Origin: Candidatus Saccharimonadales bacterium
GTDB lineage: Bacteria > Patescibacteriota > Saccharimonadia > Saccharimonadales > JBGSXW01
Assembly (NCBI GenBank): GCA_041751215.1
Contig: JBGSXW010000002.1
Span: forward strand, 350,591 to 414,590
Direction of reading: 5' to 3'
DNA length: 64,000 nt
In this document: piece by piece, positions 3,902-61,025 of the stretch
Position numbering within the stretch: the first letter of the stretch is position 1
Layout of the letters: each line of letters begins with the position of its first letter
Position numbers and translations under genes: made by a program
Notes under the pieces: model-generated
The model's database searches: none
What the model was told of the DNA's origin: nothing
Seen by the model: only the letters and a program-made list of their open reading frames with translations

Positions 3902-3933
3902 CCAAAAAGGGCCACAAAGCGGCCCCCTTTGGT
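3902..3933 (-). terminator. intrinsic terminator after tRNA-Pro(CGG)
   Basis: Minus sense: GGGGCC-GCTTTGT-GGCCC followed by TTTTTGG. Confidence 0.6.
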
Positions 3934-4008
3934 TGGTCGGGGTGAGAGGACTTGAACCTCCGACCTCCGCGTCCCGAACGCGGCGCGCTACCACTGCGCC
4001 ACACCCCG
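3934..4008 (-). tRNA. tRNA-Pro (anticodon CGG)
   Basis: CGGGGTG/CACCCCG acceptor, CCGCG-TTCGGGA-CGCGG anticodon arm, GGAGG-TTCAAGT-CCTCT T-arm, encoded ACCA. Confidence 0.95.
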
Positions 4009-4190: not shown

Positions 4191-4227
4191 CCAAGCAAAA
4201 AGCCCTGCATTAGCAGGACTCTTTGCT
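4191..4227 (-). terminator. intrinsic terminator after tRNA-Pro(TGG)
   Basis: Minus sense: AGTCCTGC-TAAT-GCAGGGCT followed by TTTTTGCTTGG. Confidence 0.6.
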
Positions 4228-4304
4228 TGGTCGGGGTGAAAGGACTCGAACCTTCGACCCCCGCGTCCCAAACGCGGTGCGCTAGCCAACTGCGCTACAC
4301 CCCG
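4228..4304 (-). tRNA. tRNA-Pro (anticodon TGG)
   Basis: CGGGGTG/CACCCCG acceptor, CCGCG-TTTGGGA-CGCGG anticodon arm, GAAGG-TTCGAGT-CCTTT T-arm, encoded ACCA. Confidence 0.95.
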
Positions 4305-27603: not shown

Positions 27604-27773
27604 TAAGACCAAAATCTGGGCGTCTACGACAAGGAAGGTGCGAGCAGCGGAAGGGTTGCTGTGCTTATTAGCACTGCGCCCTGAGCAGCGGAGCACCTGA
27701 CGCAGAGTCACAGGTGCCAGCAGCTGGGCTGCTGGGCAGTGGGACGATCGTAGCGTTCAGACTTTTGGTCTTA
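27604..27773 (-). repeat. GC-rich structured intergenic element, copy A
   Basis: A 25-bp closing helix (27604-27629 with 27748-27773) encloses at least three hairpins. The core 27630-27707 is homologous to copies B and C. There is no ORF. Confidence 0.65.
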
Positions 27774-45136: not shown

Positions 45137-47059
45137 TTAGTCGCGTCTTAGTAATGTCGTGAAGGCTTCGGGCGGAATATCAACCTTCCCAAACTTCTTC
45201 ATTCGCTCTTTGCCTTTTTTCTGTTTGGCTAGAACTTTCTTCTTCCGCGAGACATCTCCACCGTACAAACCTTTGGTCACATCTTTACGAAAAGCCGACA
45301 AGTCCTCGCGGGCAATAAACTTTGACCCGATAGCTGCCTGGAGGCTAACTTTAAACTGTTGCCGCGGGATAATGTCTTTGAGTTTTTTGACAGTTTCGCG
45401 CCCAAGACGATCAGCTTCGCTGCGATGAGCCATCAAACTTAGGCTGTCTACCATCTCGCCAGCCACTAAAAAGTCGACTCGGACTAGTTCTTCGGTTCGG
45501 TAATCATCGAGTTCGTAGTTAAAAGACCCGTAGCCACTTGTGGAGCTTTTGAGTTGATCGTAAAAATCGGTTAAAACGTTTGCCAACGGAGCTTCAAAGG
45601 TAATTAGTGCGGTTTTATCGTCAATAAAGTCTAGGCCTTTTTGCAGACCGCGTAGTCCAACCACTAACTGAATGACTGTCCCGACATAATCTTTGGGGAC
45701 AATTATCTCGCCCTTGATCCAAGGTTCTCTGATTTCAACAATGCGACTAACGTCCGGAAGTTCTCCGGCATTTTTAATTTCTATGTCTTCGCCATCGGTC
45801 AGGCTAACTTCGTATCTGGTTGAGGGGTTGGTGATGATCAAATCTAAGTCATAGCCGCGTTCTAGCCGTTCTTTAACAATCTCGAGATGCAGCAACCCTA
45901 AGAATCCCACTCTAAATCCAAAGCCTAGAACCTGCGAAGTTTCTGGCTCGTAGCTCAACGAAGCGTCGTTAAGCGAAAGTTTAGATAGCGCATCCTTGAC
46001 CCGGTTATAGTCGTCGGATGAAGCAGGGAATAGACCAGCATAAACAAATGGTTTGACTTGCTTATATCCTGGCAGCGCTTCTGAGGCAGGATTTAATTGC
46101 AAAGTAACAGTGTCGCCAACTCGAGCATCGGCAACCGTTTTAAGATCAGTTACGATGTAGCCAATCTCGCCAGTTTGCAGAAACTTTGTGGCTTGCCGCT
46201 TAGGAGTCGTGAAGCCAACTTCATTGGCAATTGCGCCTGCACTTGTAGCCATCATTTTAAGCTTGGCTTCTTTATCAATTGCGCCGTCAACAACTCGAAC
46301 CGATAAAATAACTCCTCGATAATCGTCGTACATGGAGTCAAAAATTAGAGCACGAGTCGGAGCGTCTTTATCGCCGGTCGGCGGTGGAACCTGTTCAACT
46401 ACCGAACTTAATACGCGGTCGACGCCCTCACCGGTTTTAGCCGAAATCGGGATAATGTCTTCTTTGCCGCAACCTAACAGGTTAATAATTTCCTGGCTAA
46501 CTCGGTTAACATCTGAGGCCGGCAGATCAATCTTGTTAATGACTGGGATTATCTTTAGGTCAGCCTCGATTGCTAAATAAACATTGGCAAGTGTTTGCGC
46601 TTGAATCCCTTGAGTAGCGTCAACTACTAGCAAGGCGCCCTCGCAGGCTACTAGGCTACGAGAAACTTCGTAGCTGAAATCAACATGACCTGGTGTATCA
46701 ATTAAATTTAGTTGGTGGCCTTGATAATCCATCCGTACGGGCTGCAACTTAATCGTTATGCCCTTTTCGCGCTCGAGATCCATTTGGTCAAGCAGTTGAG
46801 CCTTCATTTCTCGCCGCTCCACTGTATTGGTCAATTCGAGCAAGCGATCAGCTAGCGTAGATTTGCCGTGATCTATATGCGCAATAATACAAAAGTTCCT
46901 GATCGCCTGCTGACCGACCGCATTCACCTGCCTACCGGCAGAGCCGGCTGCACCGTGAATGCTCTTGGCGGACTGCTTTGTCTGTGACTCCGGTACTCGC
47001 TCGTCGTATGTCATATACGGCGTGCTCCGTTCCTCGTCACATCCTTGCATTCCATCCAA
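45137..47059 (-). CDS. lepA: translation elongation factor 4 (LepA)
   Basis: IIAHIDHGKST, DTPGH, NKID and the LepA C-terminal domain. The N-terminal extension is uncertain (alternative start ATG 47014). Confidence 0.95.
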   Translation of the reverse strand: MDGMQGCDEERSTPYMTYDERVPESQTKQSAKSIHGAAGSAGRQVNAVGQQAIRNFCIIAHIDHGKSTLADRLLELTNTVERREMKAQLLDQMDLEREKGITIKLQPVRMDYQGHQLNLIDTPGHVDFSYEVSRSLVACEGALLVVDATQGIQAQTLANVYLAIEADLKIIPVINKIDLPASDVNRVSQEIINLLGCGKEDIIPISAKTGEGVDRVLSSVVEQVPPPTGDKDAPTRALIFDSMYDDYRGVILSVRVVDGAIDKEAKLKMMATSAGAIANEVGFTTPKRQATKFLQTGEIGYIVTDLKTVADARVGDTVTLQLNPASEALPGYKQVKPFVYAGLFPASSDDYNRVKDALSKLSLNDASLSYEPETSQVLGFGFRVGFLGLLHLEIVKERLERGYDLDLIITNPSTRYEVSLTDGEDIEIKNAGELPDVSRIVEIREPWIKGEIIVPKDYVGTVIQLVVGLRGLQKGLDFIDDKTALITFEAPLANVLTDFYDQLKSSTSGYGSFNYELDDYRTEELVRVDFLVAGEMVDSLSLMAHRSEADRLGRETVKKLKDIIPRQQFKVSLQAAIGSKFIAREDLSAFRKDVTKGLYGGDVSRKKKVLAKQKKGKERMKKFGKVDIPPEAFTTLLRRD

Positions 47060-47189
47060 GTCGGCAACAGCGATTTTTTATAGAAGCGGGTCATTAGGTT
47101 AATAGTATAAGATCTTGAGCTAAAAGCACAAAGCGAAATCTATAAAATTATATAACTTCCTGACCTTCTTTTCAGCAATCAAGCACAAG

Positions 47190-47394
47190 GAAGCCTAGAT
47201 TCCTGCTTCCGCAGGAATGACAAGGTTTTGGTCTAAGTTCTTTTCGCGGATGAAATGCAAGGAAGATGTGAAGCACAGAGGCGGGCTGTGCAAGTGGCAC
47301 TGCCCCCGAGTACTGGAGCGTCTGACGCAGAGCCGGCAGAGCTGTTGGCTCTGCCAACAGGCAGGCCGGCGACAGTTCGCCGTGAGAGGTTAGG
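47190..47394 (-). repeat. GC-rich structured intergenic element, copy B
   Basis: The core 47258-47332 aligns to copy C at 53/75 without gaps (hand count) and to copy A with small indels. Hairpins lie at 47199-47218, 47335-47355 and 47367-47382. It abuts the murJ stop. Confidence 0.6.
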
Positions 47395-48987
47395 CTATTG
47401 AATACGAACTGGCTTAAACACAAAGTCAGTAATCTTGCGCACAACTGGGATCGACTCCTTTAGCTGAAGGGCATAGGAGAAACAGAGGTAAACCACCAGA
47501 GTTAGCGCAACCGATAGCACAAACTTAGGCACCAGCGAGAAGAACCCAACATCAGTAATTCTAAGTGGCAGAACTCGTATCAGGAAGTACATGGTGGCTG
47601 AGGTAAATATCGCGGCAATTACCATCCTTAGCAAACCACGGAAAAACTCAGGCTCAAACAAACCGGGGAATCGTCGACTCAAAATGTATATCAAAGTCAA
47701 AACCTCAAAGACGGCCACAATTGATTGCGCCACAGCCAAGCCGTAAATACCTAGATTGGCACCCCACGGAAGCACCAAATAAACCGCCAAGGCAATGTTT
47801 AATAGAATCGCAAACACTGAAACAAAGAATGGTGTTTTGGTATCTTGCTGAGCATAAAAGCTACGTGACACCAGGTGAAAAATACCTCGGAAGAAGATAG
47901 CCATGACCAATAGTCCAAGCAAATCGGCAATGATTGCGTTTCCATCCGCCACTAACAGGCGCACGATATATCCACGCCCAAAGTAGGCAACAATTATGAC
48001 CGGCAGGCTGATCCAGATTAAAACTCGCAAAATGCTGGTGAATTCTTTTTTAAACAAATCCGGCCGACCTTGGTTTAAGCGCTCGCTCATTTGTGGAAAC
48101 GCGGCAGTTGAAATAGCCACGCCAATTAGGTTGATCGGTACCCAGTGCAGCGTAAACGCAACTTCCCAAACGTTAATGAACCCGCGGCCAATACGAGAAG
48201 CCAAGTGAATCTCAACAATACTGTTAAAGTAATCGATTCCCTGGTCGACCGATCGCCAAGGCAGTAAGCTAAGCACCTGTTTAAAGCCACGGCTCCGCCA
48301 GTTAATTCGGTTGTGATACTCAAAACCAATACCAATCATTCCAATAGCAGCAATAGCTAGCTGGGCAAACGACCCCAGCAGCACACCGTAAGCCACACCA
48401 ATAATCCCTAGTTGTGGAGCCAAAAAGACAATCCCAAAAATTATGCCCAGGTTGTAAATGGCTGGAGCCATAGCAAAAAAGAAGAACCTACCCATGGCTT
48501 GCTGAACACTAGTTAAGACACTGGAAATCGCAAACAAAAACGGGTTGAAGGCGATTATTCGCATCATAATTGTAGACAATTCTTTACTGGTTGCCGACAT
48601 TTCATCGGACACAACCAAATCCACAATCTGCCCAGCAAAAATAATGATAAAGATGCTGGCTGCAAAAATAATTATCGCTAAAAAGTTAAGCAAACTAGAC
48701 GACATATCCCAGGCGGACTTCTTATTTCCGTTGGCTAGTCGCTCGTTTAAAACCGGGATGAAGGTGACGCTAAGAGCGCCTGAAACCAAAATGATAAACA
48801 TGAAGTCGGGGAACTTAAAGGCCACGCGGTAAGCATCGAGTTCTTCACTGAAAACCCCAAACTGGGTAATGAGCAGTCGCTCCCTGAAAAGGCTCAAAAT
48901 CATGCCAAAAAAGCTCATGCCGGCCAGCAAGGCTGCTGCCCATCCAATCGATAACTTGGAATTAGCTTTGTTTAGCCATTTTCTCAT
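47395..48987 (-). CDS. murJ: lipid II flippase MurJ (MviN family)
   Basis: A 14-TM MOP-superfamily pattern with the conserved N-terminal segment ...SRLLGFIR-like (FRERLLITQFG). Confidence 0.85.
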   Translation of the reverse strand: MRKWLNKANSKLSIGWAAALLAGMSFFGMILSLFRERLLITQFGVFSEELDAYRVAFKFPDFMFIILVSGALSVTFIPVLNERLANGNKKSAWDMSSSLLNFLAIIIFAASIFIIIFAGQIVDLVVSDEMSATSKELSTIMMRIIAFNPFLFAISSVLTSVQQAMGRFFFFAMAPAIYNLGIIFGIVFLAPQLGIIGVAYGVLLGSFAQLAIAAIGMIGIGFEYHNRINWRSRGFKQVLSLLPWRSVDQGIDYFNSIVEIHLASRIGRGFINVWEVAFTLHWVPINLIGVAISTAAFPQMSERLNQGRPDLFKKEFTSILRVLIWISLPVIIVAYFGRGYIVRLLVADGNAIIADLLGLLVMAIFFRGIFHLVSRSFYAQQDTKTPFFVSVFAILLNIALAVYLVLPWGANLGIYGLAVAQSIVAVFEVLTLIYILSRRFPGLFEPEFFRGLLRMVIAAIFTSATMYFLIRVLPLRITDVGFFSLVPKFVLSVALTLVVYLCFSYALQLKESIPVVRKITDFVFKPVRIQ

Positions 48988-60540: not shown

Positions 60541-60729
60541 CGTCGAGAAGTGGCGGCCTTGTTAACAGAACCGCAGTGCTTGATTTGGTTTCTGGCCAGG
60601 AAGAACTGAAACACAGACCGATGCTGTGTAACTGACACCGCTCGGGAGTATTGGAGGCTCTGACGCCGCCAGAAAGCAAAAGGCCGGCAGCGCAGTGAGC
60701 TATGCTCGCTGGCAGGCCGGCCGATCAAG
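60541..60729 (-). repeat. GC-rich structured intergenic element, copy C
   Basis: The core 60596-60670 aligns to copy B at 53/75 without gaps. The hairpin GCTGTGT/ACACCGC covaries with GCTGTGC/GCACTGC of A and B. An 8-bp hairpin CAGTGAGC-TAT-GCTCGCTG is present. Confidence 0.6.
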
Positions 60730-60734
60730 TTCTG

Positions 60735-60781
60735 TGGTAGCGGCGACTGGATTTGAACCAGTGACCCCAGGCTTATGAGTC
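60735..60781 (-). pseudogene. truncated tRNA(CAT): 3' half only (anticodon loop to CCA)
   Basis: GACTCATAAGCCTGGGGTCACTGGTTCAAATCCAGTCGCCGCTACCA is 40/47 identical to the 3' half of the intact tRNA at 60949-61025, with compensatory T-stem changes. There is no matching 5' acceptor strand upstream. Confidence 0.8.
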
Positions 60782-60948
60782 TTGCCTTTGACGCTAATGC
60801 TAACGACTTCACCAAGGTGTACGAACGAGCATCACTGCGTTTTCGTCAGCACATGATTGGTGCTATTGCCGTCAACTCTAGCCGTCAGAATGATTAACAC
60901 GAGCAGGGATTAAGTTGTTATTTGTATAACTTTTTTAATAAAGTCAAA

Positions 60949-61025
60949 TGGTAGCACCGACAGGAATTGAACCTGTGACCTTAGGCTTATGAGTCCTACG
61001 CTCTAACCAACTGAGCTACGGTGCC
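60949..61025 (-). tRNA. tRNA with CAT anticodon (elongator Met or lysidine-dependent Ile2)
   Basis: GGCACCG/CGGTGCT acceptor, loop CTCATAA, T-arm ACAGG-TTCAATT-CCTGT, encoded ACCA. It is not initiator-like. There is an A31-G39 mismatch. Confidence 0.9.

Follow-up and report, generated by a model that had tools for sequence, protein, structure and literature searches.

We examined a stretch of 64,000 nt from a Candidatus Saccharimonadales bacterium (GenBank assembly GCA_041751215.1, contig JBGSXW010000002.1, positions 350,591 to 414,590; hereafter the window, whose numbering is used throughout), in which the minus-strand genes murJ and lepA are separated by a spacer holding a G+C-rich structured repeat, here called element B. 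B lies antisense to both genes, and its 3' end is 5 nt from the murJ stop codon (47395-47397) on the opposite strand. An original prediction, made from the letters of the window, had placed B between this stop codon and the lepA promoter, with which the positions of the open reading frames (ORFs) agree, and had assigned it to one family with two further copies, A and C; a three-copy profile bears out this membership with E = 1e-37 to 1e-46. The elements have a G+C content of 57-62%, the window as a whole of 46.8%. The ungapped agreement of B and C at 53 of 75 positions (47258-47332 versus 60596-60670) was reproduced, random pairs of 75-mers from the window agreeing at 18.8 positions on average (standard deviation 3.9), and the hairpin GCTGTGY-N4-8-RCACYGC occurs exactly three times in the window (27658, 47285 and 60623), where 0.01 occurrences are expected.

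Regarding the extent of B, which had been drawn as 47190-47394, we found that 47240-47389 belong to the family, while 47190-47239, including a hairpin at 47199-47218, lie outside the consensus. The three hairpins announced for B do begin at 47199, 47335 and 47367, and two motifs are present but displaced by 1 nt from where they had been put (TTTTGGTCTAAG starts at 47226 and not 47227, GGCAGGCCGG at 47360 and not 47361). The structured unit consists of an outer helix, P0, which encloses two hairpins, SL-I and SL-II (Table 1), and a covariance model assigns 107.7 bits to its core (47247-47371). One arm of the closing helix of B had been thought missing and the copies rearranged relative to one another; B has a P0 of its own with additional pairs beside it, and the copies are not rearranged, because every copy carries its own copy-specific outer helix, TTTTGGTCTAAG being flank and not consensus. 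In the P0 of B 3 of 10 base pairs are G-U, i.e. A-C mismatches on the opposite strand. An alternative outer register pairs 47229-47242 with 47384-47397 and includes the murJ stop codon, and TTTTGGTCTAAG, just outside P0, may belong to an older outer register of B that paired with the murJ stop region. B is without a segment of ~13 nt (CGCAGUCCGCCA) that is found in most copies, and after this internal deletion the sense frame conserved in the family (see below) is lost. The region 47183-47238 just upstream of B contains CACAAGGAAGCC, which is similar to the element's CAAGGAAG, and the hairpin mentioned above, which is perfect over 8 bp; TTTTGGTCTAAG in turn is identical at 11 of 12 positions to the outer 3' arm of A. 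This region could be what is left of a further copy, or else an inverted duplicate of the sequence around the murJ stop that has since decayed. As a terminal repeat shared by the copies CTAAGACCAAAA was rejected, since matches with at most one mismatch occur only at the two arms of A and at one site beside B and could be due to chance.

The window holds four copies and not three as first proposed: a copy on the minus strand in the 5' region of lepA, element D, had been overlooked. It is divergent from A, B and C, and its core (47058..46921) reaches 133.1 bits with the covariance model. D has the sense orientation of lepA and overlaps the annotated N-terminal extension of this gene, and the 3' arm of its P0 consists of the native lepA codons immediately before IRNF. 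The murJ-lepA junction is thus doubly occupied, with B and D on either side of the lepA promoter, and the same is the case in a distant relative, L003 (L numbers designate comparison sequences). The outer helix of element A measures ~25 bp and stops at a distance of 1 nt from the stop codon of a convergent gene, which encodes a DEAD-box helicase (identified with Pfam). For the outer helix of C the 3' arm is supplied by a tRNA-Met 3'-half fragment, namely by its flank and its CCA end. The three copies do not share related neighbours (for A a DEAD-box helicase and an unknown gene, for B murJ and lepA, for C tRNA-Met and a PNPOx-like gene), and consensus scans, which are weak in this phylum, gave no plus-strand promoter or terminator near any of them. 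The tRNA fragment beside C extends from the anticodon loop to CCA plus ~11 nt of flank (60724-60785, minus strand) and duplicates at 79% identity (comparison with 60938-60995) the 3' half of the tRNA-Met next to it (60949-61025); ARAGORN calls the full gene only. It has the appearance of an att-type remnant or of a tandem duplicate in decay.

Table 1. Features of the murJ-lepA region and of the other copies of the family in the window
Feature	Position	Strand	Evidence and remarks
Element B, whole structured unit (P0 enclosing SL-I and SL-II)	47240..47389	+	RNAfold with flanks, -71.1 kcal/mol
B, P0 5' arm (CUUUUCGCGG)	47240..47249	+	10 bp with 47380-47389 (CCGUGAGAGG)
B, SL-I, long irregular hairpin	47256..47329	+	conserved AAGG, GA/GSA and RSA/GA internal loops, apical GCUGUGC-AAGUG-GCACUGC
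B, SL-II, GCCGGC outer pairs around CUGUUGGC-UCU-GCCAACAG	47332..47370	+	fold; direct repeat with 60683-60721 of C
B, outer helix 3' strand	47376..47389	+	47380-47389 is the P0 3' arm; UUCG 47376-47379 pairs with 47251-47254
murJ	47395..48987	-	ORF; MurJ Pfam match on syntenic homologues; MurJ alignment; B abuts its 3' end in antisense
lepA -10 box TATACT	47104..47109	-	same distance from the original ATG as in element-free relatives
Upstream ORF, 27 codons	47011..47094	-	opens at the original lepA start (47094-47092) and runs through the 5' arm of SL-I of D
Element D, fourth copy, inverted, after lepA codon 2	47074..46902	-	nhmmer 47061..46890, E = 9e-7; fold with flanks
Element A	27604..27773	+	covariance-model core 27619-27746, 92.1 bits; fold with flanks
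Element C	60570..60738	+	covariance-model core 60585-60722, 121.9 bits; fold with flanks

The family set comprises 18 full-length copies from twelve contigs and one decayed copy, the comparison sequences being without exception metagenome-assembled genome (MAG) or metagenome contigs. A first pass with the covariance model R1 gave 11 copies in 1.4 Mb of Saccharibacteria DNA; in total it yielded 17 hits with 55-133 bits from eleven sources and an eighteenth on L182 with 108 bits. The core measures 125-140 nt and the unit 150-180 nt including P0, and the copies fold with minimum free energies of -56 to -96 kcal/mol. P0 was found in every copy folded with its flanks, is 10-26 bp long and differs in sequence each time; it closes SL-I, which is a long and irregular hairpin interrupted by two conserved internal loops of the GA/GSA type, and then SL-II, and the unit is therefore a three-way junction. 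RNAalifold on eight copies gave 36 pairs, of which 30 show double changes that compensate each other. In the alignment of 17 copies 93.6% of the pair cells are paired, compared to 27-44% if the partners are slid by 1-3 columns, and double compensatory changes are seen in 34 of 39 pairs; none of 500 shuffles reached any of the observed measures. Consensus helices 1-5, which make up SL-I, are 91-96% paired, and helices 6-7 of SL-II ~92%, with double changes in 13 of their 14 pairs. G-U and U-G cells amount to 38 and A-C and C-A cells to 12, and the sense strand therefore has the better structure; reverse complements fold well too (-47 to -60 kcal/mol, z-scores -2.1 to -3.9). Invariant or nearly invariant unpaired positions are AGG near the 5' end and the loops 5'-GA/3'-GSA and 5'-RSA/3'-GA, two 2x3 internal loops lying five positions apart, which flank a helix of 2 bp, a mismatch and 2 bp in a pseudo-two-fold arrangement. 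The apical hairpin occurs as GCUGUGC/GCACUGC in B, CGUAU/AUACG in D and L002, ACGUAC/GUACGU in L003 and GUAC/GUAC in L004, and paired columns are less conserved than unpaired ones (0.64 versus 0.85 for D and its L002 counterpart). The prediction had located the conservation at the level of nucleotides and structure, which holds: GAG-YAC-YGGAG is read in different frames in D and L004 and the stems covary. Likewise the minus-strand ORFs of 90 and 93 aa are, as had been supposed, by-products of the nucleotide homology.

For comparison 80 loci were fetched by MurJ alignment from species-representative genomes, nearly all of Saccharibacteria or Saccharimonadales. By LepA identity L001 is the closest relative of the window (81%), the others reaching ~72-74%. 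D-type sequence was found before lepA in three distant Saccharibacteria, L002, L003 and L004 (LepA ~70-72% identical); L003 has in addition a B-like antisense copy between murJ and lepA (L003B), and L084 a decayed one (L084B). As to orientation, five intergenic copies (A, B, C, L003B, L084B) run antisense to the gene on either side, and a sixth, that of L080, only to the convergent gene that it abuts; all six lie beside the end of a convergent gene or tRNA, 0-5 nt from that end or overlapping with it. A rule by which every intergenic copy would be antisense to its neighbours was withdrawn, as a copy in the 5' untranslated region (UTR) of rpsP is in sense. This copy (L182, 10044-10200) precedes the gene for S16, and the 3' arm of its P0 covers the purine tract GGGGAAG by the start codon, so that the outer helix could mask the ribosome-binding site in the predicted fold.

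Other copies reside within genes. In L066 the SL-I portion of the element is present in a Mur ligase gene, where it adds 38 aa in-frame when compared to the homologue of L080. A search with the 52-aa peptide encoded by D among 1.84 billion representative proteins (phmmer) returned 16 hits, none of them LepA, and a peptide profile run against 5.8 billion proteins added 27 more, mostly short hypothetical proteins, several of which are annotated by their source as Candidatus Saccharibacteria or Saccharimonadales. The recurrent sense frame, LDGxQG..EQRS..Y..Y.ER....T.QSAKS.SGAAGSAGRQAGAVR, is embedded in many unrelated proteins: in FolD it stands between the two domains (Pfam), in PrmC ahead of the methyltransferase domain, in TsaB within the protein, in an MGMT-like protein it splits the DNA_binding_1 domain, and in RnpA and a PilX-like protein it forms the N-terminal end; many ORFs of 50-90 aa show the same frame. 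The covariance model confirmed the copies on the corresponding contigs (104-125 bits), each in the sense orientation of its host gene; most of them are 138 nt or 46 codons long, and six of the seven copies scored on L177-L181 share one reading frame. L177 stems from Hainich groundwater. Further copies are located at the 5' end of the gene for ThrRS, in a pilin-like gene and in the rpsP 5' UTR already mentioned. On each of two short metagenomic contigs adjacent genes carry two copies within 1-3 kb (L181, 353-489 and 1175-1312; L180, 107-245 and 2868-3005), the local density of copies in some genomes exceeding that of the window. The original prediction had named a conserved small ORF of matching frame in relatives as evidence that would speak against it. 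Such a frame does recur in unrelated proteins, because a nucleic-acid element inserts in-frame; it is not a peptide gene.

Several of the occupied sites have empty counterparts. In L005, L085, L001 and L084 lepA begins with ATG-AAx-CAA-GAx, 7-9 nt after the -10 box, and in L004 the element lies precisely between ATG AAA and CAA GAG of this gene; a B-type copy is absent from the murJ-lepA spacer of L002, L004, L005 and L085. Overall the distribution is patchy, with copies in 3 of the 80 genome loci and none in 80 metagenomic murJ loci (~1 Mb) searched with R1. D of the window and D of L002 agree at 0.82 in SL-I, although the two hosts have MurJ proteins with no more than 44% identity and the lepA core beside D agrees at 0.68-0.76. 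L003B is closest to the copy in L080 (0.77), which is at a different locus, and A, B and C of the window group with one another in preference to copies from the equivalent position of other genomes. By these sequence comparisons, the similarity between elements is decoupled from host relatedness and from location. Copies within one genome are 46-69% identical in SL-I.

The comparison of filled and empty sites bears on the origin of P0. In its outer part the 3' arm is native target sequence and the 5' arm an inverted copy of it. In the lepA copies CAA GAG nnn ATT, native codons of the gene, form the 3' arm, of which the 5' arm is the reverse complement; the codon ahead of Ile and the 5' arm vary together in four genomes (GCG/CGC, UCG/CGA, CUG/CAG, GCA/UGC). 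For C the native sequence is the flank of the duplicated tRNA-Met 3' half described above, and in L003B and L080 the 3' arm overlaps the convergent gene end. The net length of an insert equals the length enclosed by P0 minus one outer arm, as seen for TsaB (54 aa versus 58), the Mur ligase (38 aa versus 41) and, by direct comparison with the empty site, lepA of L004. Each insertion therefore added the element together with an inverted copy of ~10-12 nt of its 3' flank. No direct target-site duplication was found between filled and empty sites of lepA, TsaB and the Mur ligase, the inverted copy of the 3' flank taking its place. A terminal repeat common to copies is limited to a short inner CACGCA/UGCGUG-like sequence of at most ~6-8 bp in some of them.

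In the case of lepA the insertion has remodelled the leader. In relatives without the element the gene starts 7 nt after the -10 box (L005 3555-3585, L085 6190-6225, L084 11715-11735), and its mRNA is therefore leaderless or nearly so. The original ATG and one further codon are kept at this leaderless position in the four filled lineages, with the insert out of frame with it. The UGA of the upstream ORF in the window (Table 1) overlaps the annotated lepA AUG, and the resulting AUGA (47014-47011) falls in the loop at the apex of hairpin 1; L002 shows an AUGA overlap as well and L003 a UUGA, while L004 has an upstream ORF of 4 codons only. The arrangement suggests, as far as can be read from sequence, that translation of LepA may be coupled by termination and reinitiation.

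On this basis we consider it probable that B is an intergenic copy of a non-autonomous, probably selfish, mobile family of structured repeats of Saccharibacteria, comparable to the Rickettsia palindromic elements (RPEs); the original prediction had proposed neither mobility nor intragenic insertion. The family has apparently not been described before, and a full-text literature search found no publication linking Saccharibacteria or the Candidate Phyla Radiation (CPR) with palindromic repeats or repeats of the type of MITEs (miniature transposable elements with inverted repeats). B itself probably has no dedicated host function and at most puts a stably folded stretch between murJ and the promoter of lepA; individual copies, e.g. 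those of lepA and rpsP, may have been co-opted by the host.

How such a family could spread can be outlined as follows. The sense strand would pass through a single-stranded intermediate whose fold, and especially whose conserved loops, would be recognised by a protein. Insertion would be primed from the target, with the primed strand copying the element; the nascent strand would then snap back on the terminal inverted repeat, copy ~10-12 nt of flank and be joined, leaving the inverted target duplication. Selection on the propagation of the element itself would keep stems paired and loops constant. We put forward only tentatively, and with more doubt than confidence, that this combination of loop-guided recognition, target-primed insertion, a snap-back inverted copy of ~10-12 nt of flank and a self-closing three-way junction is a mechanism new for bacterial repeats. 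If it is true, the self-closed junction could be what makes copies tolerable in mRNAs and ORFs, and the family would form a class of mobile element, guided by structure, that is new, and would give streamlined CPR genomes a route to protein insertions and, as in lepA, upstream ORFs.

Several observations weigh against a mobile, RPE-like family. It fails the classical definition of a MITE, having neither a direct duplication nor a conserved long terminal repeat, and none of the ~60 ORFs of the window encodes a transposase, reverse transcriptase, integrase or HUH enzyme (Pfam; housekeeping functions only), while a survey of 95 Patescibacteria genomes reported no group II introns (PMC13011429). 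The evidence as a whole derives from MAG or metagenome contigs. The closest pair agrees at 0.82 in SL-I, and recent movement is not demonstrated because no two copies are near-identical. Since lepA codon 2 and the murJ-lepA spacer are filled in distant lineages, a hot spot or exchange by recombination is needed. Finally, the stems vary almost solely by compensation, also among the four lepA copies and between both copies of L003, and conserved unpaired positions with compensating stems are also the signature of a host-functional RNA.

The last point leads to the alternative that the family is a structured RNA serving the host, as a cis-regulatory leader in lepA and rpsP and as a paralogous small RNA (sRNA) or protein sponge at intergenic sites, with the GA/GSA loops binding a dimeric protein. 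Apart from the very strong covariation and the constancy of unpaired positions, it is favoured by the better structure on one strand, by the greater conservation of D between the window and L002 (0.82) than of the adjacent lepA coding sequence, by the covariation of P0 with the codon before Ile in four lepA genomes, by the Shine-Dalgarno-like GGGGAAG under the P0 3' arm in rpsP, and by the overlap of the upstream-ORF stop with the lepA start in three lineages. A leader or sRNA is senseless, however, for the in-frame copies in the interior of genes, as in FolD, PrmC, TsaB, the MGMT-like protein and the Mur ligase. The contexts share no common pathway, several intergenic copies are antisense, neither a promoter nor a terminator is predicted for A, B or C on the strand of the element, and most Saccharibacteria, including L001 with its 81% identical LepA, have no copy at lepA. 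We therefore regard this alternative as unlikely. Known RNAs with which the element might be confused were rejected individually: SRP (signal recognition particle) RNA and 6S RNA in view of the many copies and the lack of an Rfam hit, a T-box as there is no T-box sequence, a C/D-box-like or K-turn motif since the resemblance to CUGA/UGAUGA is not kept in D, and mimicry of the sarcin-ricin loop by GAGUACCGGAG since this is not conserved in A, L003 and L004.

Read from the minus strand, B, A and C might instead have been co-opted as 3' UTRs that stabilise or terminate the transcripts of murJ, the helicase and the tRNA, a role compatible with a mobile origin. In all six end-adjacent intergenic copies the reverse complement begins within 0-5 nt of the gene end or overlaps it, the reverse complements fold well, and canonical terminators were not found in the spacers of A, B and C. 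Yet the ratio of G-U to A-C cells (38:12) favours the sense strand, the three G-U pairs in P0 of B become mismatches, no U-tract follows the structure, and the rpsP copy stands in sense in a 5' UTR. Adjacency to stop codons can also be explained by selection against disruption of the downstream promoter, and we rate such a 3'-UTR role as still less probable than a host-functional RNA.

Given the pattern in 16 protein clusters and 27 further proteins, one might think of a peptide module of ~46 residues that spread among proteins, with nucleotide similarity as a secondary effect. Compensatory pairs in the stems alter amino acids, though, the motif occurs in other frames in L004 and part of L066, many intergenic copies have stops in that frame, the alignment points to substitutions constrained by pairing with no surplus of synonymous ones, and the peptide is of low complexity, has no Pfam match and lies between or within host domains, which makes this reading very improbable; an avoidance of stop codons in all frames was looked for and not observed. 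The least credible candidate is an intervening sequence removed from RNA, with P0 joining the exon ends and restoring lepA as M-(K/T/N)|Q-(E/Q/S)-x-I-R-N-F, since the retention of the original lepA ATG and codon ahead of an out-of-frame insert in four filled lineages, a P0 3' arm that is exon and loosely resembles P10 of group I introns, and the abundance of the latter in Patescibacteria (PMC13011429) are set against a 46-codon frame kept open in all mid-gene copies and six of seven on L177-L181, needless if spliced, two hairpins only without a catalytic core, no conserved nucleotide at the junctions, no match to any Rfam intron model even at E = 10, 2x3 loops five positions apart that do not form a bulge-helix-bulge, and antisense intergenic copies with no host transcript to leave. 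A bulge-helix-bulge intron had been rejected for its wrong geometry and because the frames stay open.

Searches in databases for a known identity were negative. With the 4227 models of Rfam only tRNAs reach the gathering threshold in the window, and in E-value mode up to E = 10 the best matches in the regions of B/D and A are chance matches with E = 0.66 or worse; Pfam contains no family for the encoded peptide. B and D had no blastn match in plasmid and phage collections, and a pattern scan of viral contigs gave 12 loci, all at chance level by the covariance model (at most 19 bits). A scan of genome and metagenome contigs for the exact core motif of A, B and C gave no hit, the pattern being too specific to the subfamily of the window, and R2, a model of SL-I only, added no copies in the window, L001-L099 or L100-L129.

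The gene content of the window is otherwise typical of Saccharibacteria, with a type IV pilus cluster (~11.7-20.5 kb), RecA/RecX, RuvABC, ComEC, RNase Y, DnaK/DnaJ/GrpE/HrcA and two aspartate/ornithine carbamoyltransferase paralogues. Two neighbouring minus-strand tRNA genes (3937-4008 and 4231-4304) are 85% identical over 73 nt including flank (3918-3990 and 4212-4284) and represent a local tRNA duplication.

The genomes of Saccharibacteria and the CPR are tiny, streamlined and thought to be poor in repetitive DNA. For their annotation the family matters in that it accounts for dozens of hypothetical proteins of 50-90 aa, for unusual N-terminal extensions like that of the 625-aa LepA and for split Pfam domains in MAGs. 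It also advises caution with RNA motifs, as covariation of riboswitch strength can belong to a selfish element, while the inverted target duplication and the conserved loops offer handles for finding the mobilising machinery.

Compared to known systems, the family resembles riboswitches and ribosomal-protein leaders in its covarying stems, its conserved loops and its presence in the 5' regions of lepA and rpsP, but differs in its mid-gene and antisense intergenic copies, in the lack of a common regulon and of an Rfam family, and in that most orthologous leaders are without the element. With SINEs and LINEs (short and long interspersed nuclear elements) and with group II retrohoming it would share only one putative step, the target-primed copying of a structured single-stranded template into the target; these systems leave direct duplications or none, and here neither a reverse transcriptase among the window ORFs nor a poly(A) or tRNA-like head is seen. 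In elements derived from the insertion sequences IS200/IS605 the imperfect hairpins of one strand are recognised at their mismatches by a dimeric HUH enzyme, and the IS200/IS605 family has neither terminal inverted repeats nor direct duplications and excises precisely. Repetitive extragenic palindromic (REP) sequences are extragenic, 20-40 bp long and carry a GTAG or CGTC tag (PMC3733652). The folding of a specific single strand into imperfect hairpins is a likeness to REPs and REPINs, from which the family differs by its larger size and its intragenic copies; no Y1 transposase or RAYT (REP-associated tyrosine transposase) was found among the window ORFs and no tetranucleotide target was identified, and an inverted flank duplication is not known as a feature of the REP/REPIN or IS200/IS605 families. 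MITEs such as Correia/NEMIS, ERIC, RUP and BOX are multi-copy repeats of ~100-200 bp with stem-loops, which are sometimes fused to ORFs and can affect neighbouring mRNAs (PMC2229807). The family is like them in size, in being non-coding by itself, in its dispersed copies and in presence or absence at orthologous sites; in contrast, MITEs have the conserved terminal repeats of a parent IS and direct duplications (e.g. TA), neither of which is seen here.

The closest description is that of the RPEs (Ogata et al. 2000, as related in PMC2229807 and PMC10969869), repeats of 105-150 bp with long stem-loops in a reduced genome. According to these later accounts RPEs are found intergenically and in-frame in many unrelated housekeeping genes, each family encodes a conserved peptide, and the mechanism of movement is given as unknown (PMC2229807, PMC10969869). 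Likewise we have here a short repeat with a long stem-loop, intergenic and in-frame copies, a conserved peptide as by-product and a reduced host genome. The likeness is one of description and not of sequence comparison, and the host phylum is a different one (Saccharibacteria of the CPR instead of Rickettsia). The Saccharibacteria family moreover forms a three-way junction with strongly conserved asymmetric loops, and its outer repeat is copy-specific and derived from the 3' target flank, whereas a fixed 12-bp terminal repeat is mentioned for RPEs in the accounts cited. As it fails the criteria for MITEs and shows the RPE-type combination of traits, we therefore place it as a variant of the RPE/MITE kind without membership in a named family. 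Its colonisation of essential genes (lepA, folD, prmC, tsaB, rnpA and a Mur ligase gene) without inactivation is the RPE phenomenon in an unrelated, reduced and host-dependent lineage, which suggests that protein-coding palindromes are a recurrent outcome of genome reduction.

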